Shown here: positions 2,494 through 63,374 of the stretch, piece after piece | Layout: each line of letters starts with the position of its first letter | Position numbering within the stretch: the first letter of the stretch is position 1 | Assembly (NCBI GenBank): GCA_024278935.1 | Contig: JAJRSF010000007.1 | Span: 66,799 to 130,798, forward strand | DNA from: Candidatus Zixiibacteriota bacterium | GTDB taxonomy: Bacteria; Zixibacteria; MSB-5A5; GN15; FEB-12 | Length of the DNA stretch: 64,000 nucleotides | Reading direction: 5' to 3' | Program-made: the position numbers and the translations under genes | Notes under the pieces: generated by a model | Told to the model about the DNA's origin: nothing | Seen by the model: the letters and a program-made list of their open reading frames with translations, nothing else | Databases searched by the model: none

Positions 2494-3741
2494 GTGAGGC
2501 ACACAAAACTAATTGGAATAGTTACCCTGTTTTTACTCGCATCACACTTTGTTAACGCAGATACAACATCAGTCGCTGAAAGTAACATTGACGGAGCCCC
2601 CAATATTTATATCGATTGTTCAAGTTGTGATAATGACTTTATTCGTCGTGAAATAACCTTTGTGAATTTTGTCCGTGACCGTAGCCAAGCAGACATCCAC
2701 CTTCTTGTTTCCAGATAACGAAATGGTGGTGGTGGACGAGAATACATGGTCGAATTTATAGGGCAACATGATTACGCCAACATGACCGACACTTTGATTT
2801 TCAACACCAAAGAAGCAGACACCGACGATGCCATCAGAAATCAAACAGCTAAATATTTTAAGCTGGGGCTGATACGCTTTGTTGCTAAAACGCCACTTTC
2901 AAAAGACCTGAAGATATCATACACAAAACCAAAAAATCAAATAGATGTAGTCGATAAATGGAACAACTGGGTTTTTGAGCTAAGCGGTAATATGTGGATG
3001 AACGGTGATGCGAACTATCGTTCAATAAGTCTGAATAACAACTATTCAGCAAACCGGGTAACCGAAGAATTAAAAATCGGACTGGGTGTTTGGTGGAACT
3101 ATAACGACCAGAAATTTACAGATGAGACCAGTATTGATTTATACTTAAATCGAAGTAAAGGCACCTACGGTAATTTTGTATTCAGTTTAAACGAAAATTG
3201 GTCAGCTGCTTATGAAATAAATTTCTTTGCCTCTACATTCGGTAATAAAGATTTTGATTTCTCTAACGAAGTCGGAATTGAATACAATCTATTCCCCTAT
3301 AAAGAATCTAGTCGACGTGCCTGGATTATCAGATACAATATCGGGACAACTTATATGGATTTTATTGACAAAACAGTATACGGCAAAACGAATGAATGGC
3401 TGACATATAACCGCCTAAGATCTGCTATCGAATTAACTCAACCATGGGGGTCTGTGTACAGCTCACTTAATGGAATTCTCTATTTACACGATTTTGATAA
3501 AAATAGATTGACCTTTTCGACTGGCTTGGAAGTGAACCTTTTTGAAGGCTTCTCTGTAAATTTCGATGGTAATTACTCACGTGTAAGAGACCAAATCGCC
3601 CTTCGAGATGAAAGCGAAACTGAGACAGATAGACTGCTTAGACAACGTGAACTTGCCTCGGGCTATAGGTATTGGTTATCATTTGGAGTAAGTTATTCGT
3701 TTGGATCAATCTATAATAACATCGTCAACCCAAGATTTTAA
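2494..3741 (+). pseudogene. Secreted beta-barrel outer-membrane protein of unknown family, interrupted by one in-frame TAA at 2716-2718
   Basis: ORFs 2494-2718 and 2746-3741 share a frame. Reading through gives ...HLLVSR*RNGGGGREYMVEFIG... GGAGG lies 6 nt before the GTG start. Signal peptide MRHTKLIGIVTLFLLASHFVNA; C-terminal ...NPRF aromatic end typical of OMPs. Confidence 0.6.
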
Positions 3742-3765
3742 TATTTGTAAATATTATTAGAAAAT

Positions 3766-3793
3766 GTAGGTCATGTCTTCCCGAGACCTGACT
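3766..3793 (+). repeat. GTAG-headed REP-like hairpin (GTAGGTCAKGTCT family) between convergent genes
   Basis: GTAGGTCATGTCTTCCCGAGACCTGACT. This is a near copy of 20861-20889. Stem AGGTCATGTCT/AGACCTGACT. Confidence 0.65.
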
Positions 3794-3843
3794 TTATTTC
3801 TTGAGCTTGCAATTTCTCAATCGCCTACCATTTGAATTCTTAC

Positions 3844-5166
3844 TTACCCTGCTTCGGTCACCCTTTTCTTAAGCGAAACGAATAACAATCCGAAACCTAA
3901 GACCATGCTAATACCTGATCCAAAAAGTATTCCACCCTTTGCGACCTCAAGCATGCTACCTTCTAAAGCAAGCGATGCGATGAACAATGACATCGTAAAC
4001 CCGATACCTGCAAGCAACCCTGCCCCGACCATCGTCAGCCAGTTTACATTATTCGGTAGTTTCGCCCATCCAACTCCAATGACTATAGATGATGCCAAAA
4101 GAATCCCGACTGGTTTACCTAGCACTAGCCCAAGGATAATAGCTATCGACAATGATTCTTGTAAACTTGAAACATCTATAAACACAGCCGCATTAGCTAA
4201 AGCAAAAAGAGGCATAATGACAAATGCGACCCACGGATGTAAAGCAGTTTCAAGACGTTCAAGTGGAGATATTGATTCTCTGAGGGTAAACTGTACTTCT
4301 GTCGACATACTAAATTCTGATTTCTCAATTTCACTCTTTTCACTTTTCGCAAACCTTACTCCAAGCGTAGCGATCGCTTCTCTTACTGTTTTACGATTCA
4401 CCATCCCTGTCGCTGGCGTCATCATACCAAGTATCACACCCGCAATTGTAGGATGAACCCCTGACTTCAGAGTGAACAGCCATATCGCACATCCGACCAA
4501 CAGATAGACACCAACATTTCGTACCCCTAGTTTGTTCAACAGATAAATAAGTCCAAATCCTGAAACCGACAAAACAAGCATCGTCATTTGTATCGTTTCC
4601 GTAAAGAATATGGCAATAACCGAAACAGCTAAAAGATCATCTACGATCGCAACCGATAAGAGGAAAATTTTCAGACTATGGGGTACTCTATCACCGAGAA
4701 GACTTAATATGCCTACAACAAAAGCAATATCGGTCGCCATAGGAATCGCCCAGCCGACTTCGGCAGGTTGCCCACTCTGCAAGCTCAGATATATAATCGC
4801 CGGTGTGATTGCCCCGCCAACTGCCGCAGCAGCAGGTAAAATAATTTTACGCGTTTCGCTTAACTCACCACTGGTAAGTTCACGTTTGAGTTCAAGCCCG
4901 ATAACGAAGAAAAATATAACCATCAGACCATCGTTGACCCAGTACCATAACGGATAGGAAATCGCAGACTCGCCGATTGTCAAACTGAGAGTTTGATTCC
5001 AAAAAGCATGATAGGCTGAGGCGTATGGAGAGTTGGCAACCAGTAATGCAATTATTGTACAGGCAAGAAGAACCATGCCGCCGGATGCTTCCAGATGAAA
5101 AAACCGCTGGAATGGCTTAGTAAGTTTTTGGACAGGGCGCAATTTCTGTTCTGAATTCATTTGCAT
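3844..5166 (-). CDS. nhaA: Na+/H+ antiporter NhaA
   Basis: 440 aa polytopic protein. FFHLEASGG, WVNDGLMVIFFFVIGLELKRE and ATDIAF motifs are characteristic of NhaA. Confidence 0.9.
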   Translation of the reverse strand: MQMNSEQKLRPVQKLTKPFQRFFHLEASGGMVLLACTIIALLVANSPYASAYHAFWNQTLSLTIGESAISYPLWYWVNDGLMVIFFFVIGLELKRELTSGELSETRKIILPAAAAVGGAITPAIIYLSLQSGQPAEVGWAIPMATDIAFVVGILSLLGDRVPHSLKIFLLSVAIVDDLLAVSVIAIFFTETIQMTMLVLSVSGFGLIYLLNKLGVRNVGVYLLVGCAIWLFTLKSGVHPTIAGVILGMMTPATGMVNRKTVREAIATLGVRFAKSEKSEIEKSEFSMSTEVQFTLRESISPLERLETALHPWVAFVIMPLFALANAAVFIDVSSLQESLSIAIILGLVLGKPVGILLASSIVIGVGWAKLPNNVNWLTMVGAGLLAGIGFTMSLFIASLALEGSMLEVAKGGILFGSGISMVLGFGLLFVSLKKRVTEAG

Positions 5167-5175
5167 TATTAATTC

Positions 5176-6354
5176 CTATAAATTATTTGAGGGCATATAG
5201 GCTACGACTTCATAAATCATATACGCTAAACCTGTCGAAAACAAGACAAGACCTTCTTTGCGAGATAACCTTTGACTTGTCGTTAAAAATATCAAGAGCA
5301 ATATAAACAAAAACCCCATAGCAACCAAACTTTGAATTGCTTCAGTGTGTATCGAAATTGCATCTGCTATAGGTGGTTGTACCATTAATCCGGCAATCCC
5401 TAGCACAGCAAAAATATTAAAAATAGCACTCCCTAAAAGATTGCCAATCCCAATATCAAGAGCATTTGACCTGATAGCCGAGAGCGAAACAACTATTTCC
5501 GGTGCCGATGTTCCAAGTGCTACAATTGATAAACCGATTAAATAATCCGGTATACCTAAAACAGATGCGAACCAAACAGCCCCATACCCTCTCATGACAC
5601 CATCGACAAGCTCGACCTCACCTACTAAGACATGACAACCTAACATGACAAATGTCAATCCGGCGAGCATCCGCAGAATTTTCATAGTAAGTTTCGACGA
5701 CTCTAGCTTATTGCTTTTTTCCGAATCAACAGAATCGACCTGTGATTTTTCTCTCTTTTTGATTATATAAAAGATATAAAATAGAAATAAACCAAACAGC
5801 ACCGATGCCTCTATTACGCCTAACTTTAAATCAAGTAAACCATATTTCGTCAGCCCATCGGCAAAACTTGCTTCAACTGGCAGGGTCCCGATAAATAATA
5901 ATATAAGCAGAGTTCCTACAATCAGAAGCGGAGCATCAAGTTTAATAGTCTGCCGATTTATAGCAAGCCCTCCTTTGGTAAGAAGAGCTAACCCTCCGAG
6001 GATGACAGAGATATTCAAGATATTTGAGCCGGCAATATTAGCGATAGCAATATCACCTCTCCCCCCGAACCCAGCTACTAACGATGTACCTAATTCAGGA
6101 AAACTTGTTCCAAACGCCACAACCGTAAGCCCTATCAAAAATGGTGAGACCTTAAAATGCTGTGCAATTTCCTGTGATGATTCAACAAGTAATTCAGAAC
6201 TTTCCCAAATGACTAAAATTATCGAGATGAACAATATGAGTTGAGCAAACATAAGAGCCGGTTCAGCGAGCAAATGTAACTCAATTAAAAGAATGCTTAT
6301 AAAAGCGACAAGAATTGGAGCTAGAAATTTTATTGTGCCACGACTTAACTTCAT
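5176..6354 (-). CDS. Ca2+/Na+ (cation) antiporter, CaCA/YrbG family
   Basis: Two alpha-repeat motifs, GTSFPELGTSLVA and GTSAPEIVVSLSA. I prefer the ATG at 6354 (MKLSRG); the ORF track extends to a TTG at 6378. Confidence 0.8.
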   Translation of the reverse strand: MKLSRGTIKFLAPILVAFISILLIELHLLAEPALMFAQLILFISIILVIWESSELLVESSQEIAQHFKVSPFLIGLTVVAFGTSFPELGTSLVAGFGGRGDIAIANIAGSNILNISVILGGLALLTKGGLAINRQTIKLDAPLLIVGTLLILLFIGTLPVEASFADGLTKYGLLDLKLGVIEASVLFGLFLFYIFYIIKKREKSQVDSVDSEKSNKLESSKLTMKILRMLAGLTFVMLGCHVLVGEVELVDGVMRGYGAVWFASVLGIPDYLIGLSIVALGTSAPEIVVSLSAIRSNALDIGIGNLLGSAIFNIFAVLGIAGLMVQPPIADAISIHTEAIQSLVAMGFLFILLLIFLTTSQRLSRKEGLVLFSTGLAYMIYEVVAYMPSNNL

Positions 6355-6498
6355 AAGTAACTCAGTTTTTAGTACCAAAATTTATAAATTCAATTCAAGC
6401 AATACCTCTAAAAGCATTACCATAATATCAAAGTTATACAACAGAAATACAAATTAAGTTTAAAAAATCGAAACTATTTATTAAGATTTTAATAGAAT

Positions 6499-7587: not shown

Positions 7588-7601
7588 AAATTCAGAAATC
7601 C

Positions 7602-8765: not shown

Positions 8766-8858
8766 AAAAAAATCCTTGTTCGTTAATTTTCATACTCTCT
8801 ATCTATACTAACAGACAATTGAGTTTGTTTGTTCAAAACTTTCGAGCAATAATATAAG

Positions 8859-8872: not shown

Positions 8873-10876
8873 CTAAAAGGCATATAATATAGTAAAATGC
8901 CAGCGAGAATCAACATCATATCTATCAGTTTTTATTCTTCTAGCGTAATCAATCCGAATAGGTCCTGCCGGAGAAACAATCTGAAAACCGGTTCCATAAG
9001 CAAAAGCAAACTGGTCGAACTTGATTTCTCGGCTACTTCCGAAACCGTTACCGGCATCAATAAATAAAGACTGCCATTGCGGGAATTTCTTAAATAGATT
9101 ACCAACAAACGGCAAGACATTTAAGAATTGAACCGTTTTCCATCTAAATTCCTGATTTAAAACGATTGAATAGTTTGCCCCAATCGCAACAAAATTGGTA
9201 TCATGTAAAACATTTGCAGAGTCAATTTCAAGCCGTACCGGTCCTAACGAATTTTCAGTATATCCCCTTATCGTGTTGGCTCCACCAAGGTAAAGTTTTT
9301 CATCGATAGGCACTTCAACAGACTTTCCGAACTCTTTTGCAACGCCGCCTTTCATGCGGACAGCAATTATCCATCCCGGCCAGATTTTCTGGTAGGTTGC
9401 CCAAGAAGCTTCTATTTTATAAAAGTTATTATCTCCTCCCAAAAAGCCACCAAAGTATTCTGTTGAAAGTTCTGACAACTGCCCTTTGGTTGGAAGAAAA
9501 ATATTATCACGGCTATCAAGCCTGAAAGTTGAAAAGAGTTTTCGTCGAATAGATATATCTTCAAGCTCTTGCGGAAGGACAATATTGGTATCAAGTTTTA
9601 CATTATTATACTCAAGCCCTGCAGTCGTTCTGATCTCTTCGCCAAACCATTTACTTGTTTTAGCAGAAAACGCCCACTGCTGAATAGTGAAATCACCAAG
9701 TTGAGATTTGAGTGGTGGCTCAATTTCAAATGTCAAGGTCAATGGCATACGTATCCCGAAAGTCCATGGCGTCGTATACCTCAGACTATACCGATGAGTT
9801 ATCAGTCGTGAGTCAGAACCAACTGAGAAGGAATAATCGGCGAAGGCAGAAAACCGATGACCTCCATTTTTAATTTTAAATCGTGTAAAATCTACATTAC
9901 GCTTACCAAAGCCAAAGTTGAGATCCCATTGTAAATCCTTCACTTCTGATTGACCAACACCACTCGCCAATGATAAGAATTTCGATTTTCGTTCTCTATA
10001 TTTTAAGACAAAATCAGGATGAAGTCTATTCCCGGAAATTTCCGATTGAGCAAGCTGTGAAAAAGAAAAATAGCCGGATTCAAAAAGTCTTTTTTGATAA
10101 TCCAAAATTGACTTTCTACTATAGACATCACCTTTTTTTATTTTCAATTCACGCATACCAACATATGCCGGGAAATGGCCTACGGTATCAATTGTAATAT
10201 CACCAAAATGAACAAGTGAATCTGACTGGACAGAAAAAGTTATATCTGCTTTGCCGAATTCTCTGGTTGTATCTATATCGTATGTAATCGTCGAATACGG
10301 GTAGCCATTATTGGCAAGTTCAGTTCTCATATCAAAAATGATTTTAAATATTTCAAGTGGATTAGTAGGATTGTTTTCTTTTAATTTTTCAATTTTCTGT
10401 GTTAATGGCCATCGAAACTTACCATCAAACTCACCTTGTAAAGTATGTTGCCCATAAGAATACTGTGAACCTTCATCAATATTAACCCAAATCATCGCCA
10501 TCGGGATAGAGTCGTTACTTCTTTCTTTTTTCACTTTCTGATATTTCTCAAGCGGCAAAAATGTTTCGCTCACCTGAATATTTAAATACCCTTTAGTCAG
10601 ATACAAATATTTTATCTCAAGAGTGTCACGTCCTAGTGTTTCACGCTGTACTTTCATACGACGGTCTTTTTTTATTTTCCGCCAAAGTGATTGTGTGCGG
10701 GAATACATTCTCCCACGGATTTCAGAGACAGAAAAAGCCTTGTTCCCATTGATAGCTATAGAGTCAATTATCGGTTTATCCCGAAGCCAGCGAAGTTTTG
10801 CCTTGTCAACTGCCAAAGCAGATTGTAAAGAGATTAGAAATGAGAACAATAAAATAAGCAGTACAATCTTTTTCAT
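8873..10876 (-). CDS. tamA: Omp85-family outer-membrane protein (TamA/BamA-like, POTRA + beta-barrel)
   Basis: 667 aa with a signal peptide. GGANTIRGY and a C-terminal ...HFTILYAF barrel end. Its start overlaps the TamB-like stop (TAATG). Confidence 0.75.
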   Translation of the reverse strand: MKKIVLLILLFSFLISLQSALAVDKAKLRWLRDKPIIDSIAINGNKAFSVSEIRGRMYSRTQSLWRKIKKDRRMKVQRETLGRDTLEIKYLYLTKGYLNIQVSETFLPLEKYQKVKKERSNDSIPMAMIWVNIDEGSQYSYGQHTLQGEFDGKFRWPLTQKIEKLKENNPTNPLEIFKIIFDMRTELANNGYPYSTITYDIDTTREFGKADITFSVQSDSLVHFGDITIDTVGHFPAYVGMRELKIKKGDVYSRKSILDYQKRLFESGYFSFSQLAQSEISGNRLHPDFVLKYRERKSKFLSLASGVGQSEVKDLQWDLNFGFGKRNVDFTRFKIKNGGHRFSAFADYSFSVGSDSRLITHRYSLRYTTPWTFGIRMPLTLTFEIEPPLKSQLGDFTIQQWAFSAKTSKWFGEEIRTTAGLEYNNVKLDTNIVLPQELEDISIRRKLFSTFRLDSRDNIFLPTKGQLSELSTEYFGGFLGGDNNFYKIEASWATYQKIWPGWIIAVRMKGGVAKEFGKSVEVPIDEKLYLGGANTIRGYTENSLGPVRLEIDSANVLHDTNFVAIGANYSIVLNQEFRWKTVQFLNVLPFVGNLFKKFPQWQSLFIDAGNGFGSSREIKFDQFAFAYGTGFQIVSPAGPIRIDYARRIKTDRYDVDSRWHFTILYAF

Positions 10877-13800
10877 TAGTATTCCAAATACAGTTTTAAA
10901 TTCAAATGCTGCAAATCATCTTCATCCTTGAGACCTTGTAGAAGAAGCCCTTTTATAATTCGATACTCAAAGCCAACTTCATTTTTCTTCAGTGAGATAT
11001 CTGAACCACCAAAAATATAAAAATCTTTTGCCAAATATTTCCCAAGCGTCACAGTCGTAAGACGCGGGTCATACTGCCCACCTGAATAATGCGGATTGAT
11101 TTCAAAAGTTTCCACGCCTAACTGCTTGGTGCCAATTTGGGAGAACTGTGTTGAAAGCAAATCTGAAATCCGCTCTTCAAATGAGTTGGTCACTTCGGTA
11201 GAACCTCCGCTATAATTTGCCACTAACAGCGGTATAATATTTTCATTAGAATCAAAATCAGAATCTTCAGTCACATTAATAATCGGCTCCTCTAAAGTAC
11301 CTGAAATATGCAGCCCAAGTTTGAGCTGTTCCGATGAGTTATCTTCATCAAATTGATCCTTGGCACCTTTCAGTCTGGTGTAACCGGTAATGTCAAGAGA
11401 TGGGTTAAACTGATCATCACCCTCAAAGATAACAACCCCACCCGGGTCAAGGCGAATAGTTTTGTCAAAGAGATACCCTTTGCCCCGCAAGATTTCCATC
11501 TCACCGGCAAATTTATAAACACCATCAGTTCTTTTTAAATTTATATCGCCGGCAAACTCAGCCTCGATATCTTCATTTTTAATCCAGTAGTTGGCAGGCA
11601 TTTCAATATCAAGATCTAAGTTCCAACTATTCTCTCCTTGTAGTAACAACATAATCGGAGAACCTTGGTCTTCTTCGGCAAAGTTAACTTCATATTTCAT
11701 ATTTGTAATTTCAAGCTTACCTTTTACCAACGGTGGAGTTTCGCCTTCGACAGACATAGACCCTTTTGCCTTGCCTCTAATATCATCAAGTTCATAGATA
11801 AACGGCATAGGGTCAGCAATATCTATTTTAAGATCGTAAAACAGATTATCAAAAGTAAGTACTTCAATGTCACCGGATATATTTGCATGACGTTTATTTT
11901 TTTTCTCAAGAACATAGACATCGATATTATTGATAAGTATTTTCGAGTCCGACATTGTCACACCGGCAGAGTCAGTATAGATTGGCGCTTCTAAATCAAA
12001 ATATTTTAATTGAGCAGGAAGATATTTATCTGCACGATCATCATAGTAATGATTGATATATGCTTCTCCCTGAAGGTGAGGTTTTTTCGGAGTCCCGGAC
12101 AGAATTATGTCAGCAAAGAAGTTGCCCTTAATTTCTTCTACCGATGGAAGGATATGCGAGACTAAATCGAATCGGCTATCAGTAGCATTACATTGTATAC
12201 GCCTAGGTAAATTCGGAAAGCGGTTTATATCGGCAGAACTAAATTCCAGATCAAGATACAAATACCCTTTGGCACTATACTGACCCGGGTTTGAAAACAA
12301 CAGAAGTGAATCTATTGTCAGTTTTTTATTTTCATATTTTACTATAGTCTGCAAATCGCCAAGCAACAACTCTTGATACGAAAGCGAATCGACTTCTCCG
12401 CGTATAACAAATTCAGGGTTTTTAAAACTGCCTTTCAACGCAGCTTCACAAGACAACACTCCCGCAACAGAGAGAGAGTCTTCATACAAATTTTTCCATG
12501 GCTCAATAGGAATATGATTTACAGAAAAAAGCAAATCAAACGACTCATCAAAATTTGTCCGTCCATTAACCGCCAACCATTGATTTTCATATCCGATAGA
12601 TGCTTGCTTAAATTCAAAGCCGAGAGAGTCGACTTCAACTTTTATTTTATTCCGATTATACAAAGTCTGTTTAGCTAAATCCAAATATAGTGAATCAAGT
12701 ATTAAAAGATTCGGCACTGACTCATAGTCAAACTGTCCCTTGGTTGATAAGTGACTGAATTTATTCACGAGTGAAGATGTGTCAATATATACAATGTTAG
12801 AATCTATTGTTAAAAATGTATACCCGGAATCATATGGTATCGCCCATGCAGAACCATTGCTGAAATCAATTTCGACAGTTCCCTGCTTGGCGTGTAAAAA
12901 CTTGTCAACATCGATTGTCGCATACATCGAGTCAGCAAACAAACCGTATATCCATACCGAGTCAGATACAAAATCACCGTTAAGATTCGGGTCTCTCGTT
13001 TCTCCATCAATGATAGCTTCGGCGTAGCCTCTTCCCCCCGGTTGGTCGATAAAAAGTTTCTGCTGATAGCGGTCAAGGTTTTGCAAATCGGCAGTTACTA
13101 AAAGATCCATCTCATCTCTATAGGTCAGATTTCCTTCGACTGTAAATAGGTTTTCAAAATATTGAATTTCAAACGGTTCAACAAATGTTATCGAATCGGT
13201 CGTCACATTAAATTTACCGTGTGCCGCATGGATCGGATAAATATCAAATTGTGATTCAAAAAGTTCAGTTTCAAATTTCAGAAGTAAGTTTTCTTTTTTT
13301 AATGACTCCCCATCCATAACAAGCCAACCACTTAAATTAGAATAAAAAGAATTCTTCACTATATTTTTCAGATTGAATTGTTTGATCTCTGCTTCAAGAT
13401 GATACGTTTTCTGTGGCTTGGTGAAATCCATCAGCCCTTTGCCGTTAACATCACACTCACCGAAAACAGTTCCGAACAAAGTATCTATTTTAAGCATTTT
13501 ATCGGCGAATGAAAATTCGCAATATAAATTCTGCATATCAACAACAGCAAGTTTGCCACCGAGATGTGCCGAGCCTTGTATAAGAGACTTCGAGAAAGCA
13601 ACTTTCCCATTGACATCTAAGACCCCCTTCAGCTTCGGACCAACATACTGAGATATCTTTGCCAGGTCTAAATTATCAACGGCAAAACGAACTTCGCCAT
13701 TTATTTCTTTTACTAAATTTATATTACCATCAATCTTTATTCTCGTATCCGAAGTCACCAGTGCGACATCTTTGAACACCAAATTATTATTATCAAAAGT

Positions 13801-14430
13801 TAATTGTCCACCGGCAGTATTTAGAACTATATCATTTTTATTAGTTGAAAAATTAAACTTCGCTACATCAAAAGCATAAGACTTCTCTTCACTTTTTAAT
13901 TCCAAGGCTAAGAAAATATCTTTCACCGAAATCGTGTCACCTTTATCTAAAAGAGTGATAGACATATTACGAATATCCAAAGAACCTATAGAAAAAGATG
14001 GAAGCTTCAGTAGTGATTTTGGGCTTTTATCTTTCGGTCTGAAATCAGGTATTATCCAATTGTTGGCTGAGTCTCGTATCAAAGTTATCTCGGCAGAATC
14101 AATAATAAGAAAGTCGAGCATATATTTTTTATCCCAAAGATTTGAAAAAGAATATGCCGTTTTTATTTTAGTTATACGTAAGATTTTATACCTGTTTAAA
14201 GAATCATTATAAAATACATCGATATCTTCAAGTTCAAACCCGGAAAGATAACTACCATTGATCTCTTTAATCTCAATATCCAACTGATATTTTTCATCGA
14301 CCAGTGAAGATATTTTATTATTTACAATAGATTCAAGACCGCCAAATTGAAAGACATACAAATACCCCGACAGTGTAAGAACCGCCAATACAGCGACAAG
14401 ATATAAGAGATATTTTAAGACGACTCTCAT
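10876..14430 (-). CDS. tamB: Translocation and assembly module protein TamB-like (AsmA/DUF490 family)
   Basis: 1184 aa. N-terminal membrane anchor, long beta-rich body, TamB-like C-terminal region (...GKYLAKDFYIFGG...LNLKLYLEY). Paired with the Omp85 gene. Confidence 0.7.
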   Translation of the reverse strand: MRVVLKYLLYLVAVLAVLTLSGYLYVFQFGGLESIVNNKISSLVDEKYQLDIEIKEINGSYLSGFELEDIDVFYNDSLNRYKILRITKIKTAYSFSNLWDKKYMLDFLIIDSAEITLIRDSANNWIIPDFRPKDKSPKSLLKLPSFSIGSLDIRNMSITLLDKGDTISVKDIFLALELKSEEKSYAFDVAKFNFSTNKNDIVLNTAGGQLTFDNNNLVFKDVALVTSDTRIKIDGNINLVKEINGEVRFAVDNLDLAKISQYVGPKLKGVLDVNGKVAFSKSLIQGSAHLGGKLAVVDMQNLYCEFSFADKMLKIDTLFGTVFGECDVNGKGLMDFTKPQKTYHLEAEIKQFNLKNIVKNSFYSNLSGWLVMDGESLKKENLLLKFETELFESQFDIYPIHAAHGKFNVTTDSITFVEPFEIQYFENLFTVEGNLTYRDEMDLLVTADLQNLDRYQQKLFIDQPGGRGYAEAIIDGETRDPNLNGDFVSDSVWIYGLFADSMYATIDVDKFLHAKQGTVEIDFSNGSAWAIPYDSGYTFLTIDSNIVYIDTSSLVNKFSHLSTKGQFDYESVPNLLILDSLYLDLAKQTLYNRNKIKVEVDSLGFEFKQASIGYENQWLAVNGRTNFDESFDLLFSVNHIPIEPWKNLYEDSLSVAGVLSCEAALKGSFKNPEFVIRGEVDSLSYQELLLGDLQTIVKYENKKLTIDSLLLFSNPGQYSAKGYLYLDLEFSSADINRFPNLPRRIQCNATDSRFDLVSHILPSVEEIKGNFFADIILSGTPKKPHLQGEAYINHYYDDRADKYLPAQLKYFDLEAPIYTDSAGVTMSDSKILINNIDVYVLEKKNKRHANISGDIEVLTFDNLFYDLKIDIADPMPFIYELDDIRGKAKGSMSVEGETPPLVKGKLEITNMKYEVNFAEEDQGSPIMLLLQGENSWNLDLDIEMPANYWIKNEDIEAEFAGDINLKRTDGVYKFAGEMEILRGKGYLFDKTIRLDPGGVVIFEGDDQFNPSLDITGYTRLKGAKDQFDEDNSSEQLKLGLHISGTLEEPIINVTEDSDFDSNENIIPLLVANYSGGSTEVTNSFEERISDLLSTQFSQIGTKQLGVETFEINPHYSGGQYDPRLTTVTLGKYLAKDFYIFGGSDISLKKNEVGFEYRIIKGLLLQGLKDEDDLQHLNLKLYLEY

Positions 14431-15100
14431 GCTTTTACTTTCACTTTATCAAGAATCTGCAATGCAGAATTATACCCATCACCGGCAGAGCTTCCAAGGT
14501 CATCCACGACACTTTTGACTAACGCTTCTGACGCACCAACATTCAACGCACCCAGTATATGAGAATGAAGTTGCCGTACTCTGTTTTCCATTGTCAAAAA
14601 AGCTACAATAGAAAGTTCTCGTGTAATAAGCGGAAGATTTTCTCTCGACAACACTTTTCCATATCCTTCTAAAATCATCCAATGAAATATTTCGGGAGCA
14701 AACTCTAAAACTCTTTTTTTGAGAAGTTCATATTTTTCGTTATATACTTTCCCGCAAACATCTTCTCCCTTTTTATACCATTCAGAAAGAGAATTCTTCG
14801 ATAAAAAATCAGATTCAGGTAAATCATTTTTTCAACTGGGAGAACTTTTTGTAAAACATCTGCCGCCTGAAGCATTCTTGGAAAGCCTAAAAACAGATAC
14901 GACTGCAAAATCACCTCATATAACTGTTCACGGCTTATCCGAAGTTCTAATGCTTTTGCGATAGCATTTTCGGTTATAATAGCATCATCAAAAGTTATAG
15001 CAGCCGAAAAAAGAGCAAGCATACGATCGCTCATATCAGAAGTCGGATTAAATTGAGAGAGAATTGTTTGAAATTGGGCTTTATCGGCTGAGCTGTTCAT
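14427..15100 (-). pseudogene. Carboxymuconolactone decarboxylase (AhpD-like) family protein, split by a frameshift at a poly-A run
   Basis: ORFs 14705-15175 and 14427-14678 join if the A6 run (plus-strand T6 at 14827-14832) is A7. The joined reading is ...VLPVEKNDLPESDFLSKNSLSEWYKKGEDVCGKVYNEKYELLKKRVLEFAPEIFHWMILEGYG... Likely start is MNSSADKAQ at 15100. Confidence 0.6.
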
Positions 15101-15143
15101 ACCGATAGTAAAAGAAAAATCTAAGCAGTTGGCAACGTAAATT

Positions 15144-16328
15144 TTATCTACGTAACTGTTTAACTGTACTTTCAAGCCCTTTAATCTGTTCTTTAAGAAA
15201 CTGTATCTCTTTTAAAATCGAATCAGCCAATAAGTCAGATTGGGTGCCATGAGGTGATTTTGTTTGGGCATGTGCCTTTTCCAGTGTTCCGACCTTTACA
15301 TCAACAGAATAAATAGCATTATGACGCAGGAAATCAAACCCTATTGTTGTCCCGGGTTCTGTTTTTTGTATGAATGTCGCAAATGCTTGAGGATTATCAA
15401 TAGAGAATTTATTCGCTTGAAACAGGAGATCACCTTTTTTAAATCCCGCCAAATACGCAGGCGAATGCATCGCTACTTTTTCGACAATCAAACCATGTGA
15501 AATTTCAATTCTATTTTTTAGAGAGGCTATTGTGCTTTGCTGCATATTAGGCATCATTTGCACTACGATAGGTGGAGATATTTCAATCTCACGGGTCTGC
15601 AAACCAAGATACCCGGCATAACGATTGCCATTTTCTTTGAGGTAACTAACAATTTCAGGTATCTTATAAGCAGGAATCGCTAAACCAACTTCAGACCTGT
15701 CCCCTATTTGAGCCGTAATGACTCCGAGAAGTTTTCCGTTCATTGAAAACAGACCACCACCATGAGAACTTGGTGTAAAAGATGCCGAAAACTGCATCAT
15801 GCCGTCAGGTCTATAGCCGGCACAAATCCCTAATGCCGATGCTGCCCGAACACCATAGGAATTGCCAATCGCTAATATCATCTGTCCGGCACAACCTGTT
15901 TGTGTCTTGACTTGAATCGGACGACCATACGGTTTATTCATTTTCAAAAGAGCTATACCATTTTGATAATCAATTCCAACAACCCGAGCTGAAACAGATT
16001 TGTCATCCAGACGGATTGAAATATTTGAAAATTTCGAGACGGCTTCAGCAGGTGCTATGAACAATCCGGAAGTATCAATAATCAATCCCGTAGATATCAA
16101 CGAATAGACAGCTTCGTTTTGATTGGGACTGCTGTTGCTCGGATAAATTGGTTACGATGCTTCGACAGTCACAATTGAACGTGCCACATCATATACCAGT
16201 TCATTGAGACCTGTCTCTAAATTAATTAAAGCAGAGTCTTGAGCCGAAACAGCGGTCGAAAAAAAGACCGCCAGAAAAAACATTATACACGTTTTTATGA
16301 CGGTCATTTTAGAGAAGAACTTTATCAT
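15144..16328 (-). pseudogene. HtrA/DegP-like protein (trypsin fold + PDZ + C-terminal coiled coil) lacking a recognisable catalytic triad, with an in-frame TAA at 16152-16154
   Basis: The ATG at 16328 overlaps the anti-sigma stop. Signal peptide MIKFFSKMTVIKTCIMFFLAVFFSTAVSA. Reading through gives ...SIVTVEAS*PIYPSN...LISTGLIIDTSG... PDZ-like segment GLIVEKVAMHSPAYLAGFKKGDLL. Confidence 0.6.
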
Positions 16329-17008
16329 TAGTATTCCTTATGATTCTCCTTTACCGAGTCGATTTGCGGAATAATATACACCCGATAAACAGGGCGAATC
16401 CGATAATATGTCGTCACATAAGGTATTGGTGTTTTCTGTTTAGTATGCACCGATGCTAATGACATATTCTGACCACCGGAAAAAGAACCGGCAGGCATCA
16501 TGTTCCGTGAAATACGGTTGCTTCTTTCAACTCGTGCTAAATGATTGTCAAGCGACCAATTTTTATTCATATTCGGATTATTGGTCGGTTGAGCAGTCAA
16601 ATAAGAATCATCCAGAGAACTCTCTTGATGAGCAAAATTGTCTCGTGTGGTATCCGGGCCGTGTGAGAACAATGAGAAAAGTGTAAATACAACAACAAAT
16701 GCCGATGCTACCGCCGGGACTGCTTTCGACCATACAAACAGAGGAGGTTTCTGTACATGGTACGCTTTACTTCGAGTCTCAGCGAATCGTTCATTGGCAA
16801 TTCTATTTAATAACAGATTATTAAAATCTTTTGATACGTGCAAAGAATCTACTTCTGTCGTTGCTGCAAACATTGTGTTATACAGTGATTCTTCTTTTCG
16901 GCAGAGAGCGCAGGACGAAAGATGCTTATCAACAGCAAGTTTCTTACGACCCTCTAACTCATCATTACAATAAGCCGACAGGTAAGAGCGTACTTTTTGA
17001 CAACGCAT
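16328..17008 (-). CDS. Anti-sigma factor (zf-HC2 N-terminus, single TM)
   Basis: 226 aa. MRCQKVRSYLSAYCNDEL...HLSSCALCRKE zinc-finger anti-sigma motif and a central hydrophobic helix. Directly downstream of the ECF sigma gene. Confidence 0.7.
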   Translation of the reverse strand: MRCQKVRSYLSAYCNDELEGRKKLAVDKHLSSCALCRKEESLYNTMFAATTEVDSLHVSKDFNNLLLNRIANERFAETRSKAYHVQKPPLFVWSKAVPAVASAFVVVFTLFSLFSHGPDTTRDNFAHQESSLDDSYLTAQPTNNPNMNKNWSLDNHLARVERSNRISRNMMPAGSFSGGQNMSLASVHTKQKTPIPYVTTYYRIRPVYRVYIIPQIDSVKENHKEY

Positions 17009-17567
17009 TATGTCTCTCCAGTTTTGGTGATAATTTATCTCTCAGCATCATTCGAGCTCTATTGACTCGTGACTTTACTGTTCCAAGCGGAACCGATAAA
17101 ATCGTTGCGACTTCTTCATATGGAAATTCTTGGATGTCGCGCAACACAAATGCTGTTTTATATTTCTCAGGGAGTTCATCAATTGATGCTTTCAAAATTT
17201 CCGGCAAACGTGACGGAAGTTTCATCTCAACAGCAAATTCTTTTTCATTCCCTTGCATTTCTGATATTTCTAAAAATTTGAATTTCTTTCTCTTGCGTAA
17301 TTCATTCCGTGCTAAATTCAAAGCAATCGTATAAATCCATGTCGAAAAACAATGTTGAAAGTTAAACGATTGACGATGCTGATATACACGGACAAATGTC
17401 TCTTGTACTACATCTTCGGCTTCTTCTGTTGATGACAACATTCTGCCAATAACATTCATGAGACGATCTTTATATCGATCTACCATATCATTAAATGAAA
17501 CCATATCGCCATTTTGGATAGCTCTCATTAAGGTAAAATCAATATCTTTTTCTGTCAGTTTACTCAT
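16965..17567 (-). CDS. rpoE: ECF (RpoE-type) RNA polymerase sigma-70 factor
   Basis: 200 aa. Region 2 (DVVQETFVRVY...FSTWIYTIALN) and region 4 (LPEKYKTAFVLRDIQEFPYEEVATILSVPLGTVKSRVNRAR). Confidence 0.88.
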   Translation of the reverse strand: MSKLTEKDIDFTLMRAIQNGDMVSFNDMVDRYKDRLMNVIGRMLSSTEEAEDVVQETFVRVYQHRQSFNFQHCFSTWIYTIALNLARNELRKRKKFKFLEISEMQGNEKEFAVEMKLPSRLPEILKASIDELPEKYKTAFVLRDIQEFPYEEVATILSVPLGTVKSRVNRARMMLRDKLSPKLERHNALSKSTLLPVGLL

Positions 17568-23866: not shown

Positions 23867-24982
23867 TTATTCTGAGGATGCGAGGTAGCGGAGGGCGTTG
23901 GATTTGAGTTTTTCTTTATCGAAACCTTTCAAATCAGCTGTCTCTAAAAACTCGATAAACTTCAAGTCTATTTGTCCTATGCTTGTGCGTCCAAACTGCG
24001 GAGTGGACTCATCGACTTTCTCTTTTTCAAACTGGATATTCAACGAATACGATTTTTGTTTAAGTTCAGCAAGCACCGCTGTCGGTAAAGTCTTGAGAGT
24101 TTCTTCTGACACACCCGAAACTTTAAGACGGACAATTTTGTCCGATGATTTTATTTCGGCAAGTTTTTCTTTGATGATAGCAACAAGTTCATCACCGCGT
24201 TTTCCTTTTGCTTCTATAACAGGCATGTCAACCATGACACGGGAATGCACTTTGACAAAGCGTAAATCAAAGTTCTCAAGCTCAACAACGATGAAGCCTT
24301 TTTCGGCATCACGTTCTGATTGCGAAAGCCGTTAGGTTGAACCAGCGTAGTATGATTTTTCGGCAACTTTGCAGTAGTTATGAAAATGCCCCAATGCGGT
24401 GTAATCGAACTGTTCCATCAGTTTGAGCGGAAGTTCCTGCTCGCCCAAATCAGCCATCGAAAACTCGGGCATCCCTGCGGCAACGCCATGCATAATAAGT
24501 ACGTTGTGCTTGTAGTTCGCATCAGGTACGCATTGTGTCAGCTCTTTTTTTTGAATCTCTGTCGTCAAACAATGCGGTAATGCGAAGAGCTTCGTGTCGC
24601 CTATTGTAAAGGTCTCTAAGCCGATACCTGCCGATATATATAGATTGTCGATATGGTCGAAGATATTCAAAGCTGCCCCTATGTGAGGCTGTTTTGGGGC
24701 ATCGTGGTTACCAGAGATGATTACAGTCGGAATTTTGTGAACTTCAGCAAGTCGATGAAGCTGTTCCCCTGCTATGGCAATGATTTTGTTAGTCGGCCTG
24801 ACAACATGGAATATGTCACCGGCATGAATACAGATATCCGGTTTTTCCTCGATAATTTTATTAACCGCCTCGATGAAAGAATTGATGATATCTTCCTGCC
24901 TGAGGGTCAGCCCGCTCTCGCCTCGTTTGGGATGATTCTCGCCTGCCCCAAGATGGGTGTCTGCAATGTGACAAATTTTCAT
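23867..24982 (-). pseudogene. sbcD: SbcD/Mre11-family nuclease, interrupted by an in-frame TAA at 24332-24334
   Basis: ORFs 24332-24982 and 23867-24250 share a frame. Reading through gives ...KSYYAGST*RLSQSERDAEKGFIVVELENF... Phosphoesterase motifs HIADTHLG, GDIFH, GNHD and GHFH are present. Confidence 0.7.
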
Positions 24983-53811: not shown

Positions 53812-54458
53812 TTATTGTATTTCACTTAAAATAGATTTAAATACTTCATTAGGATCTCTGTCAGCATTAATTTCAGCTAAGAGAGATTCATTTCTATAAT
53901 AATCAATAATCGGTTTTGTTTGAACATGATAGATATCAAGTCGATATCTGACGACATTTTCTTCATCATCATGTCTAATAATTAAATCCGTATTATCGTT
54001 ATCACATTTTCCTTCAACTTGTGGTCTCATGCTTTCAACTCGAACATTAAATGTTGTTTGGCAAGTCGGACAAAATCTCCGACCAGACATACGAGTTACA
54101 ATAGTATCATCGTCAACTTCTAAACTGATAGCTTTGTCAAGAACCACATTTACATCAACAAGCATTTTTTTAACGCATCAGCTTGCGGAATTGTTCTTGG
54201 AAAGCCATCTAAAATAAACCCTTTAGACAACTGTCCAGAGTTAATTTTGTTTTGAATCATTCCAACAATAAGTTCATCAGGAACTAGTTCACCTTTCACA
54301 AGGAAAGCTTCCGCTTTATGTCCAAGTTCGGTTTTGTTATTTACCGCATCTCTTAAAAGATCTCCGGTAGATAAATGTTTTAACCCGAACTTTTCAGAAA
54401 GTCTCTTCGCTTGAGTACCTTTACCAGACCCCGGAGGGCCCAAAAAAACCAAGTTCAT
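53812..54458 (-). CDS. adk: Adenylate kinase, split as written by a 1-nt deficit in a poly-A run (54165-54171)
   Basis: ORFs 54150-54458 (GPPGSGKGTQ P-loop ...FPRTIPQADALKK) and 53812-54165 (MLVDVNVVLDKAISLEVDDD...SGRRFCPTC...CDND lid) join as ...ADALKKMLVDV... if A7 is read as A8. Confidence 0.85.
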
Positions 54459-57320: not shown

Positions 57321-57346
57321 AATTTTTTACACCAATACTTTATTTA

Positions 57347-57886: not shown

Positions 57887-57900
57887 AGTCCAATCCTTTC

Positions 57901-58299: not shown

Positions 58300-58323
58300 A
58301 ATACTATTATTCTCCTAAACCTT

Positions 58324-58509
58324 TTACCAACTAGCTTTCACTACACCAGGTAGATCGCCAGCAAGCGCCATTTCTCTGAAACATATACGACATAGCCCAA
58401 AGCGACGCATATATGATCTTGGACGACCGCATTTACGACAACGGTTATATCCACGAACAGCAAATTTCGGTTTACGTTTTTGTTTTTCAATCAAACAAGT
58501 TTTAGCCAT
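58324..58509 (-). CDS. rpsZ: 30S ribosomal protein S14 type Z (zinc-binding)
   Basis: [46 protein letters not shown]...W, 61 aa. The ORF-track N-terminal extension overlaps rplE. Confidence 0.93.
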
Positions 58510-58516
58510 AGTTTTC

Positions 58517-59056
58517 CTACTTACGGAACGGCATGCCAAACTCTTCCAACAACTGCCGAGCTTCAGCATCAGAGCCGGCTGTGGTTGCAAAAGTAATGTT
58601 CATACCTCTTATTTTATCAATTTTATCGTATTCAATTTCCGGAAAAATCAATTGTTCTTTGAGACCCATATTAAAATTTCCACGTCCATCAAACGATTTA
58701 GGATTAACACCCTGGAAATCTCTAATACGAGGGATAGCAATATTAATTAAGCGATCCAAAAATTCATACATAGCATCACGACGCAGTGTTACAGAACAAC
58801 CAATACCAACACCTTCACGAAGCTTAAAATTCGAAATCGATTTTTTCGCTTTGTTAATAGAAGGTCTTCTTCCGGTAATTTTAGTTAAATCTCCAACAGC
58901 AGCATCAAGTAGTTTTGAATTCTGGGTAGCTTCACCAACACCGACATTAACCACAATTTTAGTTATTTTCGGAATCTGCATAACTGATGAATACTTATTA
59001 TCTTTCATCATCTTAGGCATGATTTATTTTTCATATTTGTCATGAAGTCTTGTCAT
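58517..59056 (-). CDS. rplE: 50S ribosomal protein L5, interrupted as written by an in-frame TAA at 59024-59026
   Basis: The true N-terminus, [30 protein letters not shown]..., starts at the ATG at 59056. The ORF track only reports the part after the stop (58517-59020). Confidence 0.88.
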
Positions 59057-59068
59057 ATCATACAACCT

Positions 59069-59386
59069 TTAAATCTGTTCGCCGGTTTTCCGACAAATTC
59101 TCATTTTGATTCTTTTGCCACCCTCATCAATTACTTTACTGGATAGTTTTGTAGGACCACCCAAAGTATTTGAATACAGTGCAACATTACTAATATGAAC
59201 CGGAGCTTCAATAGAAATGATTCCACCCTTCGGGCTTTTTTGTGTTGGTTTTTGATGACGTTTCATCATATTCACGCCTTCAACCAAAACAGAATCTTTT
59301 TTCAAATCGACAAATAAAACCTTACCGGTTTGCCCGGCAGATTTTCCAGTTCGAATAAATACGGTATCGCCTTTTCTAATCTTCAT
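59069..59386 (-). CDS. rplX: 50S ribosomal protein L24
   Basis: 105 aa. MKIRKGDTVFIRTGKSAGQTGKV (KOW motif). Confidence 0.94.
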   Translation of the reverse strand: MKIRKGDTVFIRTGKSAGQTGKVLFVDLKKDSVLVEGVNMMKRHQKPTQKSPKGGIISIEAPVHISNVALYSNTLGGPTKLSSKVIDEGGKRIKMRICRKTGEQI

Positions 59387-59401
59387 AATCTATCTCCCTC
59401 G

Positions 59402-59767
59402 TTAGAGGACCTCCGGAGCAAGTGACACAATTTTCATAAATTGTTTGTCACGAAGTTCACGGGCAACCGGTCCAAAAATACGAGTGCCACGAGGTTCTTT
59501 TGCATCATTAATAATTACAGCCGCATTATCAGAGAAACGAATAACAGATCCGTCTTTTCTTTTTAATCCGGTTTTAGTTCGTACAACAACAGCGCGGCAG
59601 ACCTCTGATTTTTTCACAGTTCCACCCGGGATTGCTTCTTTGACAGTAACAACAATAATGTCACCAACAGTAGCAACTTTTTTGCGTCCGCCGATAATAC
59701 GGAAACACATAACTTTTTTTGCGCCTGAATTGTCAGCCACAGAAAGTACGGTAAATTCTTGAACCAT
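59402..59767 (-). CDS. rplN: 50S ribosomal protein L14
   Basis: 121 aa. [18 protein letters not shown]... Confidence 0.95.
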
Positions 59768-59791
59768 TTTCTACATTTCCTTTCTGTGCGG

Positions 59792-60058
59792 CTATTTAGC
59801 CCGCTCAACAATTTCGACTAAACGCCAGCGTTTTTGTTTTGACATAGGTCTTGTTTCCATGACTTTGACAACATCACCAACGCCTGCTTCATTTTTTTCA
59901 TCGTGTACCATCAACTTAGATGATGTACGGAAAGTTTTTTCATACCGTGGATGTTTCATAACTCTTTCAACTAAGAGCGTGAAACTTTTATCCATTTTTG
60001 AAGAAACAACTTTCCCAACACGGACTTTTCTTAAACTTGTTCTATTTTCAGTCATCAA
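59792..60058 (-). CDS. rpsQ: 30S ribosomal protein S17
   Basis: 88 aa. [27 protein letters not shown]. Confidence 0.94.
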
Positions 60059-60066
60059 TAACTCCG

Positions 60067-60333
60067 CTATTCCTTTTTACCTTTTTTGGCAGCTTTGGAA
60101 TCCGGTAAAATAGTTGCTCCTAATTCAGCAAGTTTACGAATACCGAGTTTGTCTTCGTTTAAAGAAGTCAAAACCAAAGCGATTTCTCGTCTGATTTGTC
60201 TTAACCGAAGTGGATTATCCAGAGCTTTCATCGAACGTCTCATACTGAGATTAAACCGTTCATCCAAAAGATCATTTTTCTTATGGAGAAGTTCATCGCG
60301 AGTCATTTCACGCAAGTCACGTATTTTCAACAT
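60067..60333 (-). CDS. rpmC: 50S ribosomal protein L29 with a C-terminal extension
   Basis: 88 aa. [27 protein letters not shown]... plus about 25 extra residues. Confidence 0.9.
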
Positions 60334-60335
60334 AG

Positions 60336-60758
<423 letters not shown>

Positions 60759-60783
60759 CTAATAAATTCTCCCAATAACCATA

Positions 60784-61674
60784 TCAACTTTTTGACTCTT
60801 TCGAGTCAGATTTGTTTTCAGTTTTGTTAACAGTTTTAGTTTCAGCTTGTGCAGGTCTTTCAGGACGACGTCCTTTTTGTGCAGGTGCTGAACCGGGACG
60901 ACCATCAGGTTTGCGGCGAATTTTACCACGAGGACGCTTACCACCAGCTCCCCCACGATTATCTTGTCCACCACGAGGTCGTTTGTGATGTCCACCATGA
61001 GAAGCATCGGCATCTTTCTTCTCTTTGTCCGCGTAAAAATTACCTTTTTCCATGATCTCACCTTTACATATCCATACCTTCACGCCAATACAACCGTAGG
61101 TAGTATGAGCAGTAGAAGTTGCGTAATCAATATCAGCACGAATAGTATGTAGCGGGGTGCGACCTTCTTTATATTTTTCATCGCGTGCAATTTCAGCACC
61201 ACCTAGACGACCTGAACAACGAATCTTGATACCCATGGCACCCATCTTCATTGTAGTCGCGATAGTTTTTTTCATTGCTCTACGAAACGAAACACGCCCT
61301 TCAAGCTGACGAGCAATAGAGTCGGCAACTATTTGAGCATTTAATTCAGGTTTTCTAACTTCAACGATGTTAAGCAAGATATCTTTTTTTGTCAACAGCT
61401 GTAGCTCGCTCCGAAGTTTGTCAACTTCAGATCCCTTACGGCCAATAACGATACCGGGACGTGACGTGTGAATATCCACGGTGACTTTTTTGGGTGCTCG
61501 GGAGATACTGACTTTAGCAATACTTGCATTAGCTAGACGTCTTAAGATATAACGTTTCACTTGCAAATCTTCATGCACTAAATCAGCATATTTATTGTCA
61601 GGTGCGAACCACCGACTGTTCCAAGTTTTTATAACACCAAGTCGAAAACCTATGGGATGAGTCTTTTGTCCCAA
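60784..61674 (-). CDS. rpsC: 30S ribosomal protein S3 with a long Arg/Gly/Lys-rich C-terminal extension
   Basis: (M)[13 protein letters not shown]... core plus about 85 extra residues ([26 protein letters not shown]...). TTG start 6 nt after AAGGAG. Confidence 0.93.
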
Positions 61675-61696
61675 AGTATACTCCTTAAAAGATCAA

Positions 61697-62230
61697 TTAA
61701 CTTTCGTTTTTATCTGCTGCTTTAGCTGTTTTTTTGACAGCTGTTTTTTTAGCAACAGTTTTCTTTGCCGCTTTTTTCTTTGGAGCGGCAGCTTTTTTAT
61801 CCGAAGCGTCAGTAGTTTTAGCATCTTTTTTGACTACTTTTTTCTTCGTTTTTACAGCAGCTTTTTGTTCAGCTTCAACATCGGTATGTCCTTCAATAAA
61901 AACTGTCAAGTGACAGAACCGTTTGTGATAGCGAAACACACGACCCATGGAACGAAAACGAATTCGTTTTTGAGTCGGGGCTGCGTCGACTATAATATTT
62001 TTAACAACTAAATCTTCAGGATGTAAATGATCTGTACCTTCTTGGGACAGGGCATTTGCAGCTGCTGATTTAACCGTTTTCGCCAGATGGTGGGCAGCAA
62101 TTTTCGGCGTGAAATTCAGTGCCGCTAATGCTTTTTCCACCTTCATACCTTTAACGTTATCCGCAACCAAACGCATTTTGCGTGGAGGGATAGAAAGGTA
62201 CTTGAGGCTTGCTTTTGATGAAACCAACAT
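61697..62230 (-). CDS. rplV: 50S ribosomal protein L22 with a Lys/Ala-rich C-terminal extension
   Basis: 177 aa. RKMRLVADNVKGMKVEKALAAL core plus a tail of roughly 60 aa (KKKVVKKDAKTTDASDKKAAAPKKKAAKKT...). Confidence 0.93.
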   Translation of the reverse strand: MLVSSKASLKYLSIPPRKMRLVADNVKGMKVEKALAALNFTPKIAAHHLAKTVKSAAANALSQEGTDHLHPEDLVVKNIIVDAAPTQKRIRFRSMGRVFRYHKRFCHLTVFIEGHTDVEAEQKAAVKTKKKVVKKDAKTTDASDKKAAAPKKKAAKKTVAKKTAVKKTAKAADKNES

Positions 62231-62233
62231 AGC

Positions 62234-62527
62234 TTATTTACCTTTCAACGCTGAAAAGCGATCCGTTATTTTACCGCCATGACCGCGATAAGTTCTTGTA
62301 GGGGCAAATTCACCCAACTTATGACCAACCATATTTTCAGTTACATATATAGGTACAAACTTATTACCAGTATGAACCGCAAATGTATGACCAATAAATT
62401 CAGGAAGAACAGTAGAACGGCGAGACCAGGTTTTAATTACTTTTTTCTGACCAGACTCATTTAACTTATCAACCTTTTTCATCAGATGGTCATCTACGAA
62501 AGGTCCTTTTTTTAGAGAACGAGGCAT
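62234..62527 (-). CDS. rpsS: 30S ribosomal protein S19
   Basis: 97 aa. [18 protein letters not shown]... Confidence 0.95.
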
Positions 62528-62543
62528 CTATGTATCTCCGCCT

Positions 62544-63374
62544 TTAAATTTTCGCTCTACGATCTTGAATCAAATGATCGTTAGATTTACGTTTACTTCT
62601 TGTCTTATACCCTTTAGTAGGTTTACCCCACGGTGTACAAGGATGACGTCCCCCAGAGGAACGACCTTCACCACCACCCATAGGGTGATCAACAGGATTC
62701 ATTGCGACCCCACGAACATTTGGACGAATACCGCGCCATCTAGATGCGCCGGCTTTGCCCCAAATAACGTTCTTGTGATCGACATTAGATACTTGACCGA
62801 TTGTCGCATAACATACAGCAGGGAATGTACGTACTTCTCCTGAAGGCATTTTAAGAGTAACCTTTTTACCTTCTTTGGCAACAACCTGACAAAACGAACC
62901 AGCAGAGCGGGACATTTGCCCACCTTTACCGGGTCTCATTTCAATATTATGAACGTTGGTTCCCAATAGAATTTCTCCTAAAGGCAACGTACAACCAACA
63001 TTTTGTTCAATATTTTCACCAGACAATACAACGTCATTGACGTTTAGACCAACCGGTGCGATAATATATCTTTATTCACCGTCGACGTAATGCAACAGAG
63101 CTATACGTGCTGAACGATTCGGATCGTATTCAATAGAAGCAACACGAGCCGGGATATTAAATTTATTTCTTTTAAAATCAATGATTCGATACATCCGTTT
63201 GTGACCACCACCACGTTGGTACGCAGTGATACGACCTTTATTATTACGACCACCAGATTTCTTAAGCGGACTTAATAAAGATTTTTCCGGTACGGTAGAT
63301 GTAATCTCATCAAACGCCGGAACCGTTCGGAAACGGAGTGTCGGAGTAATCGGACGAAATTTCTTAATTGCCAT
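62544..63374 (-). CDS. rplB: 50S ribosomal protein L2, interrupted as written by an in-frame TAA at 63072-63074
   Basis: ORFs 63072-63374 and 62544-63026 share a frame. Reading through gives ...[30 protein letters not shown]... Total length of 277 codons fits L2. Confidence 0.9.

Follow-up and report, generated by a model that had tools for sequence, protein, structure and literature searches.

Why should seven genes be interrupted within one short stretch of a bacterial genome, three of them (rplB, rplE, and adk) essential, when the flanks of every interruption are fully conserved? The question is raised by a 64,000-nucleotide stretch (hereafter the window) of contig JAJRSF010000007.1, positions 66,799 to 130,798 of the forward strand, from the metagenome-assembled genome (MAG) GCA_024278935.1, which SecY searches placed in Candidatus Zixiibacteriota. 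The window has a GC content of 38% and carries ~73 genes, and the region from 49.6 to 64 kb (22% of the window) holds the S10-spc-alpha ribosomal protein cluster together with secY, adk, map, infA, and rpoA. A preliminary description of this DNA had reported five in-frame TAA codons and two one-nucleotide deficits in A-runs, and translation across the sites found all seven lesions at those positions, interrupting 7 of the ~73 genes (~10%). The evidence presented here indicates that the lesions are probably an artefact specific to this assembly or library. The interrupted genes are the following:

2494..3741, plus strand: outer-membrane-protein (OMP)-like gene with a signal peptide; in-frame TAA at 2716-2718; 415 amino acids when reconstituted, against 416 in relatives.
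14427..15100, minus strand: carboxymuconolactone decarboxylase-like (CMD-family) gene, PF02627; one-nucleotide deficit in the A6 run at 14827-14832.
15144..16328, minus strand: HtrA-like serine protease gene with Trypsin_2 and PDZ domains; in-frame TAA at 16152-16154, around codon 59 and past the signal peptide.
23867..24982, minus strand: sbcD; in-frame TAA at 24332-24334, codon 218; 371 amino acids, against 371 in relatives.
53812..54458, minus strand: adk; one-nucleotide deficit in the A7 run at 54165-54171; 215 amino acids, against 215 in relatives.
58517..59056, minus strand: rplE (L5); in-frame TAA at 59024-59026, codon 11.
62544..63374, minus strand: rplB (L2); in-frame TAA at 63072-63074, codon 101; 276 amino acids, against 276 in relatives.

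Repairing a single base in each gene restored a protein of almost exactly the length found in relatives, which bears out the earlier statement that the flanks are conserved and the total lengths match the families (e.g. rplB 276/276, sbcD 371/371, and adk 215/215). Pfam identities were confirmed for all interrupted genes apart from the OMP-like gene, which had no Pfam match. No further interrupted genes were found in the window, the other genes either equalling their relatives in length or fully spanning their Pfam domains.

The preliminary description had also proposed a comparison with orthologous loci, and this returned sense codons at every testable TAA site (Gln, Glu/Gln, Glu, Glu, and Lys, in the order listed above). 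The OMP-like position is Gln in 98 of 116 homologs, every close one included, which suggests a CAA>TAA change. The HtrA-like gene, with 394 reconstituted amino acids against 393-394, is intact in relatives, and three of these have GAG, CAA, and GAG at the site. In sbcD the position is Glu in 117 of 120 homologs and GAA in two related loci (L165 and L166), and in rplE it is GAA in the closest relatives, so that both changes are read as G>T. At the rplB position 60 of 62 relatives encode Lys, the closest of them with AAA, which indicates an A>T change within an A6 run of the ancestor. As for the A-run deficits, adding one A to the CMD-family gene gives a single open reading frame (ORF) of 249 amino acids, while relatives have one gene of 220-249 amino acids; the deficit sits within a linker whose indel content varies among relatives. 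The adk site reads TTA AAA AAA TGC in the zero frame and thus forms an A_AAA_AAA heptamer. Two relatives are in frame there, one (L001) with AAAGAAAA and a closer one (L168) with an A8 run, TTAAAAAAAATG, and an intact relative of the gene (P0194) encodes a protein of 215 amino acids. The rplE lesion differs in its immediate surroundings: an ATG at 59018-59020, one codon past the TAA, opens a 167-amino-acid ORF that lacks the 12 N-terminal residues and spans both L5 Pfam domains. Re-initiation after a stop at the TAA could then give an L5 short of no more than those 12 residues, and rplE would be the least harmful of the lesions, if real.

All seven lesions proved to be private. At every site the relatives, which were compared at 64-94% protein identity, have sense codons or intact genes of essentially equal length. 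Among ~2,700 orthologous copies of ribosomal-cluster genes at 160 related loci there were no internal stops (each stop symbol in these alignments fell at the end of a high-scoring segment pair and was not counted as internal), against 2 internal stops among the 26 ribosomal-cluster genes of the window. The lesion load exceeds chance or ordinary MAG noise.

The distribution of the lesions is equally hard to reconcile with selection. The essential ribosomal/adk cluster carries three of the seven, and essential genes being struck as often as others shows that selection has not filtered them; this blindness to essentiality supports error, because real mutations in essential genes would be purged. 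Apart from the lesions, the DNA looks healthy. The lineage leading to the window shows 797 private changes compared with 693 and 874 for its two nearest public contigs (L001 and L002), normal in both count and spectrum, and, the rplB TAA site aside, none of 865 strictly invariant protein columns shows a deviation private to the window. With flanks that have not decayed and a normal number of substitutions, the lesions would have to be either extremely recent or not biological.

Comparison with neighbouring genomes narrows the cause further. The nearest public contigs are JAJRQO010000009 (L001; 86.4% nucleotide identity over 14.4 kb), which belongs to GCA_024280215.1, and CALCCW010000119 (L002; 85.1%). 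A second MAG, GCA_024276275.1, is 85% identical to the window across three contigs (JAJRXM010000028.1, JAJRXM010000004.1, and JAJRXM010000012.1; L169-L171) totalling 52 kb, and it carries the same signature: in-frame TAA codons in rpsS and TamB, an A7>A6 deletion in rplN, and a T4>T3 deletion in sbcD. These sites lie at ~2951 and ~5672 in JAJRXM010000028.1, ~10274 in JAJRXM010000004.1, and ~10690 in JAJRXM010000012.1. Both L001 and L002 have GAA at the position of the rpsS stop. The rate is ~1 lesion per 13 kb, two of the four fall in ribosomal/adk cluster genes (rpsS and rplN), and gene calling left out rpsS altogether, while each of the remaining three was split or cut short. This recurrence of the signature in a second, non-sister MAG is a new finding. 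No lesion is common to the two genomes, and their TAA codons lie in different genes. In contrast, GCA_024280215.1 shows no lesions in ~74 kb (P = 9e-4 under an equal rate), and other close contigs show none in ~66 kb. Identity between any two of the four species is much the same (85-87%), the window and GCA_024276275.1 are not sister taxa, and the affected genomes form no clade. Lesions that are private, assembly-specific, and phylogenetically incoherent point to a technical or sample-level cause. The clean genome, JAJRQO, is named Dive100_bin10.64, which is listed among bins from Southwest Indian Ridge sulfide-chimney samples sequenced on an Illumina HiSeq X with PE150 reads (PMC9769843), and JAJRXM presumably comes from the same project, to judge from its accession series. 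SecY of GCA_024276275.1 is 90% identical to that of the window, yet it lies outside the top matches from a species-representative genome collection.

Taken as an artefact, the seven lesions would be errors of the deposited MAG sequence, and the true genes would be intact. The errors would consist of single-base substitutions (C>T, G>T, and A>T) that happened to create TAA, and of single-base deletions in A-runs. Their cause is probably specific to certain assemblies, libraries, or bins, since the signature is present in a second MAG from the same genus-level clade and missing from a third; candidate faulty steps are low effective coverage, template DNA that was damaged or had passed through a bottleneck, a fault of the assembler or polisher, and gap filling. 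The reads, or the organism, would then carry sense codons and A7 or A8 at the lesion sites. There is precedent for this on a large scale. An analysis of 126,564 public genomes, combined with the reassembly of real and simulated reads, traced many putative pseudogenes to assembly error, among them ones with internal stops, and found that low-quality reads mostly raise the number of internal stops and less so that of frameshifts (Cooley and Wright, 2024; PMC11017572). Those spurious pseudogenes resemble the present ones: conserved genes that are otherwise whole carry internal stops and frameshifts, close relatives disagree with them, and their number follows the assembly rather than the taxon. 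The lesions in the window are likewise incongruent with the closest genomes and indifferent to essentiality, the pattern by which such assembly errors are recognised.

The base changes themselves were also considered. All five TAA codons of the window arise from first-position NAA>TAA changes (one C>T, two or three G>T, and one A>T), a regularity that had escaped the preliminary description and that has a probability of p = 0.003-0.01 under neutral models. The restriction to TAA as such was there called weak evidence, which is roughly right: 51-65% of random nonsense changes are expected to be TAA, giving p = 0.03-0.1 for five of five. General NAA>TAA conversion, counted in all frames, showed no excess (37, 35, and 28 in three lineages), and no common sequence or methylation motif was found around the window TAAs. 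The changes run mainly toward T or A, with G:C>T:A prominent, a pattern consistent with an AT-biased process or with DNA damage by oxidation or deamination, and the deletions are consistent with slippage of a polymerase. Random or AT-biased substitution at ~0.06-0.17% per base fits the data and predicts 3-6 extra missense changes at conserved columns. If random substitutions lay behind the five stops, ~40-110 errors (0.06-0.17%) would be implied in the window, yet there are just 2-3 indels.

Several of these results weigh against an artefact and should be set against the evidence above. The implied error profile is dominated by substitutions, and no sequencing platform matches it well. Long-read homopolymer compression was tried as an explanation and rejected, as the homopolymer length distribution of the window equals that of its Illumina-assembled relatives: two of ~190 A/T runs of at least 6 nucleotides are off, and ~60 A/T runs of at least 7 are in frame. 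A well-covered Illumina assembly with a 132-kb contig should, for its part, hold almost no consensus errors. When the two MAGs are pooled, seven of seven nonsense codons are TAA and six of seven are NAA>TAA, with p ~0.005-0.05 according to the model used. Across 1,469 clade-conserved columns the window has 5 deviations compared with 6 and 3 in two clean relatives, so that no missense excess is visible; the expected excess is just 3-6, and the power of this comparison is too low to exclude either a uniform or an AT-biased error process. Finally, SecY scans of genome and metagenome contig collections returned no same-species assembly, nothing exceeding 91% protein or 86% nucleotide identity. Cooley and Wright (PMC11017572) worked with isolates that have near-identical neighbours, whereas error is inferred here from more distant genomes, and a profile of all-TAA stops with a clean homopolymer spectrum is not described in their study. 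The preliminary description had ranked consensus error first, a population or hypermutator origin next, and recoding last; that order stands, whereas its picture of homopolymer indels plus substitutions, taken as a long-read consensus, is not supported.

The changes toward T and A would also fit lesions that exist in the sequenced DNA yet have no function, a reading that I consider unlikely without dismissing it. It has two variants. Unselected mutation or damage may have been fixed by a bottleneck, with few templates, heavy duplication in the polymerase chain reaction (PCR), DNA oxidised or deaminated in a metal-rich vent chimney, and PCR slippage on A/T runs; alternatively, the assembler may have taken up defective alleles from a polyploid or a mutY- or mutS-like hypermutator population. 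The spectrum of 3-5 G:C>T:A, 1-2 C>T, and 1 A>T among seven changes is typical of oxidative and deamination damage and also of natural AT-biased mutation, just as one-base deletions in A/T runs are typical of polymerase slippage. The indifference of the lesions to essentiality is in keeping with it too, as is the recovery of related MAGs from sulfide-chimney samples, where one sample gave enough DNA only after extractions were pooled (PMC9769843). However, damage strikes each molecule independently and would reach the consensus only at very low unique coverage, which is hard to square with a 132-kb contig. Neither C>A nor, more broadly, G:C>T:A or any other class of change is in excess on the window branch, although this lineage-specific comparison has low power, and a viable population cannot have null alleles of rplB or rpsS as its majority form. 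It is scarcely credible that the lesions reflect ordinary pseudogene decay in a lineage degenerating under host restriction. Such decay would explain a mixture of nonsense and frameshift changes in ~10% of genes, as seen in recently host-restricted bacteria, but it is contradicted by the essential single-copy genes that are struck (rplB, rplE, and adk, and in the second MAG rpsS and rplN). The conserved flanks, the exact lengths, and the lack of excess missense speak against decay as well, the window shows no deletions and no insertion sequence (IS) expansion, and gene content and 38% GC resemble those of free-living relatives. The preliminary description had likewise called such decay unlikely, and the essential genes struck and undecayed flanks uphold that view.

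Real recoding would require that in-frame UAA be tolerated in the clade, read either by an ochre suppressor tRNA or by tRNA-Gln, -Glu, or -Lys as near-cognates, with the A-run shifts fixed by slippage of RNA polymerase or by -1 ribosomal frameshifting, and it is very improbable. Its appeal lies in the codons: six of the seven in-frame TAAs in the two MAGs stand at Gln, Glu, or Lys codons, with p ~0.005-0.02 under neutral models, and at just such codons a suppressor that is near-cognate or has a UUA anticodon would insert a similar residue. Yet three or more different amino acids are replaced by the TAAs, including a Lys that is almost invariant in L2, and TAA is the main terminator of the window (44 of 73 genes; TAG 22, TGA 7). 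A back-up stop lies no more than 3 codons beyond 14 of the 44 TAA genes and 7 of the 22 TAG genes, which amounts to no enrichment. An Rfam scan of the window matched a single tRNA, Arg-CCT, and thus no tRNA with a UUA anticodon. As for the frameshifts, the adk heptamer A_AAA_AAA lies in the right frame, and either a -1 shift or a transcript with one extra A would restore the ancestral L-K-K-M, whereas the CMD-family site, A_AAA_A, permits no more than the slippage of a single tRNA. At A6 and A7, both runs fall below the ~9-nucleotide runs of described bacterial transcriptional slippage (PMC5009743), and the 90 nucleotides downstream of the frameshift sites fold no better than shuffled sequences (z = +1.26 and +0.85), with nothing convincing downstream of the TAAs either. 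The ATG near the rplE stop allows for possible re-initiation, but this and the adk heptamer offer no relief for the rplB, sbcD, HtrA-like, or OMP-like lesions. The signature was seen again in a second genome of the clade; even so, no relative shares any of the lesions, and the two affected genomes do not form a sister pair. Two unrelated mechanisms would moreover have to act together, efficiently enough for stoichiometric ribosomal proteins. Codon reassignment is contradicted by these data, and recoding failed all the tests to which it could be put.

Known systems of altered decoding lead to a similar verdict. In stop-codon reassignment (codes 4 and 25, and the TAG- or TGA-recoded phages), in-frame stops also occur at conserved sense positions of essential genes, but there the codon is normally no terminator and has one amino acid clade-wide, while TAA in the window ends 60% of genes, stands for Gln, Glu, or Lys, and in its in-frame positions is private to each assembly. 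Programmed -1 frameshifting of the dnaX or IS type relies on heptamers such as A_AAA_AAG (PMC5009743), and adk shares with it a zero-frame heptamer, A_AAA_AAA. Unlike those systems, adk has no downstream stimulatory structure and the site is unconserved, its relatives having the in-frame alternatives given above. Rescue by slippage on poly(A) in the endosymbionts Buchnera and Blochmannia (cited in PMC5009743) likewise involves one-base A-run deficits in needed genes, and an extra A in the adk transcript would restore the ancestral peptide in the same way. The window differs in that its runs are A6 and A7 rather than ~9 or more nucleotides, in that the shifts are unconserved, and in that the host is a Zixibacterium of free-living type with 38% GC instead of a reduced, AT-rich endosymbiont. 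Reassignment of TAA is not known from bacteria.

If the lesions are an artefact, two public Zixibacteria MAGs hold ~1 gene-breaking error per 10-13 kb, which would affect ~10% of their genes if it extended genome-wide, and pseudogene counts, completeness estimates, protein databases, and scans for alternative codes would be distorted. The signature is simple to screen for: TAA-only stops at NAA codons together with -1 deletions in A/T runs, in essential genes. It is, on the other hand, a very long shot that the vent Zixibacteria clade truly carries UAA at Gln, Glu, and Lys codons and -1 A/T-run shifts in essential genes, by readthrough and slippage or by polyploid complementation. Real lesions of this kind would mean natural tolerance of both UAA and frameshifts in essential genes of a free-living bacterium, a major finding on decoding and the first naturally tolerated UAA in such an organism.

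Split fragments of the rplB, adk, sbcD, HtrA-like, OMP-like, and CMD-family genes are indexed as separate entries in a large protein collection, where some act as cluster representatives and each is found on a single NCBI contig. The lesions have in this way already been carried into derived protein databases.

Some features of the surrounding genes were recorded in addition. The OMP-like protein has more than 5,000 homologs, one of them named DUF481. Its homolog in GCA_024280215.1 (L167, 10001-11251) lies in another neighbourhood, beside Band_7/NfeD and near selA/selB, which indicates that the locus has been rearranged between species; that genome encodes selenocysteine machinery. The CMD-family and HtrA-like genes belong to an envelope-stress-like cluster on the minus strand (8873-17567), whose gene order is kept in five of five related genomes examined. 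It comprises an extracytoplasmic function (ECF) sigma-70 factor, a zf-HC2 anti-sigma factor, the HtrA-like protease, the CMD-family protein, TamB (1,184 amino acids), and an Omp85/POTRA protein, with an overlap of 44 nucleotides at the zf-HC2 anti-sigma gene and of 1 nucleotide (ATGA) at the HtrA-like protease gene. In the ribosomal cluster, the ORFs of rpsC (60784-61674, 296 amino acids) and rplV (61697-62230, 177 amino acids) are long for S3 and L22. The corresponding ORFs in JAJRXM010000028.1 have 296 and 172 amino acids, which indicates that these extensions are typical of the clade and that neither gene carries a lesion.

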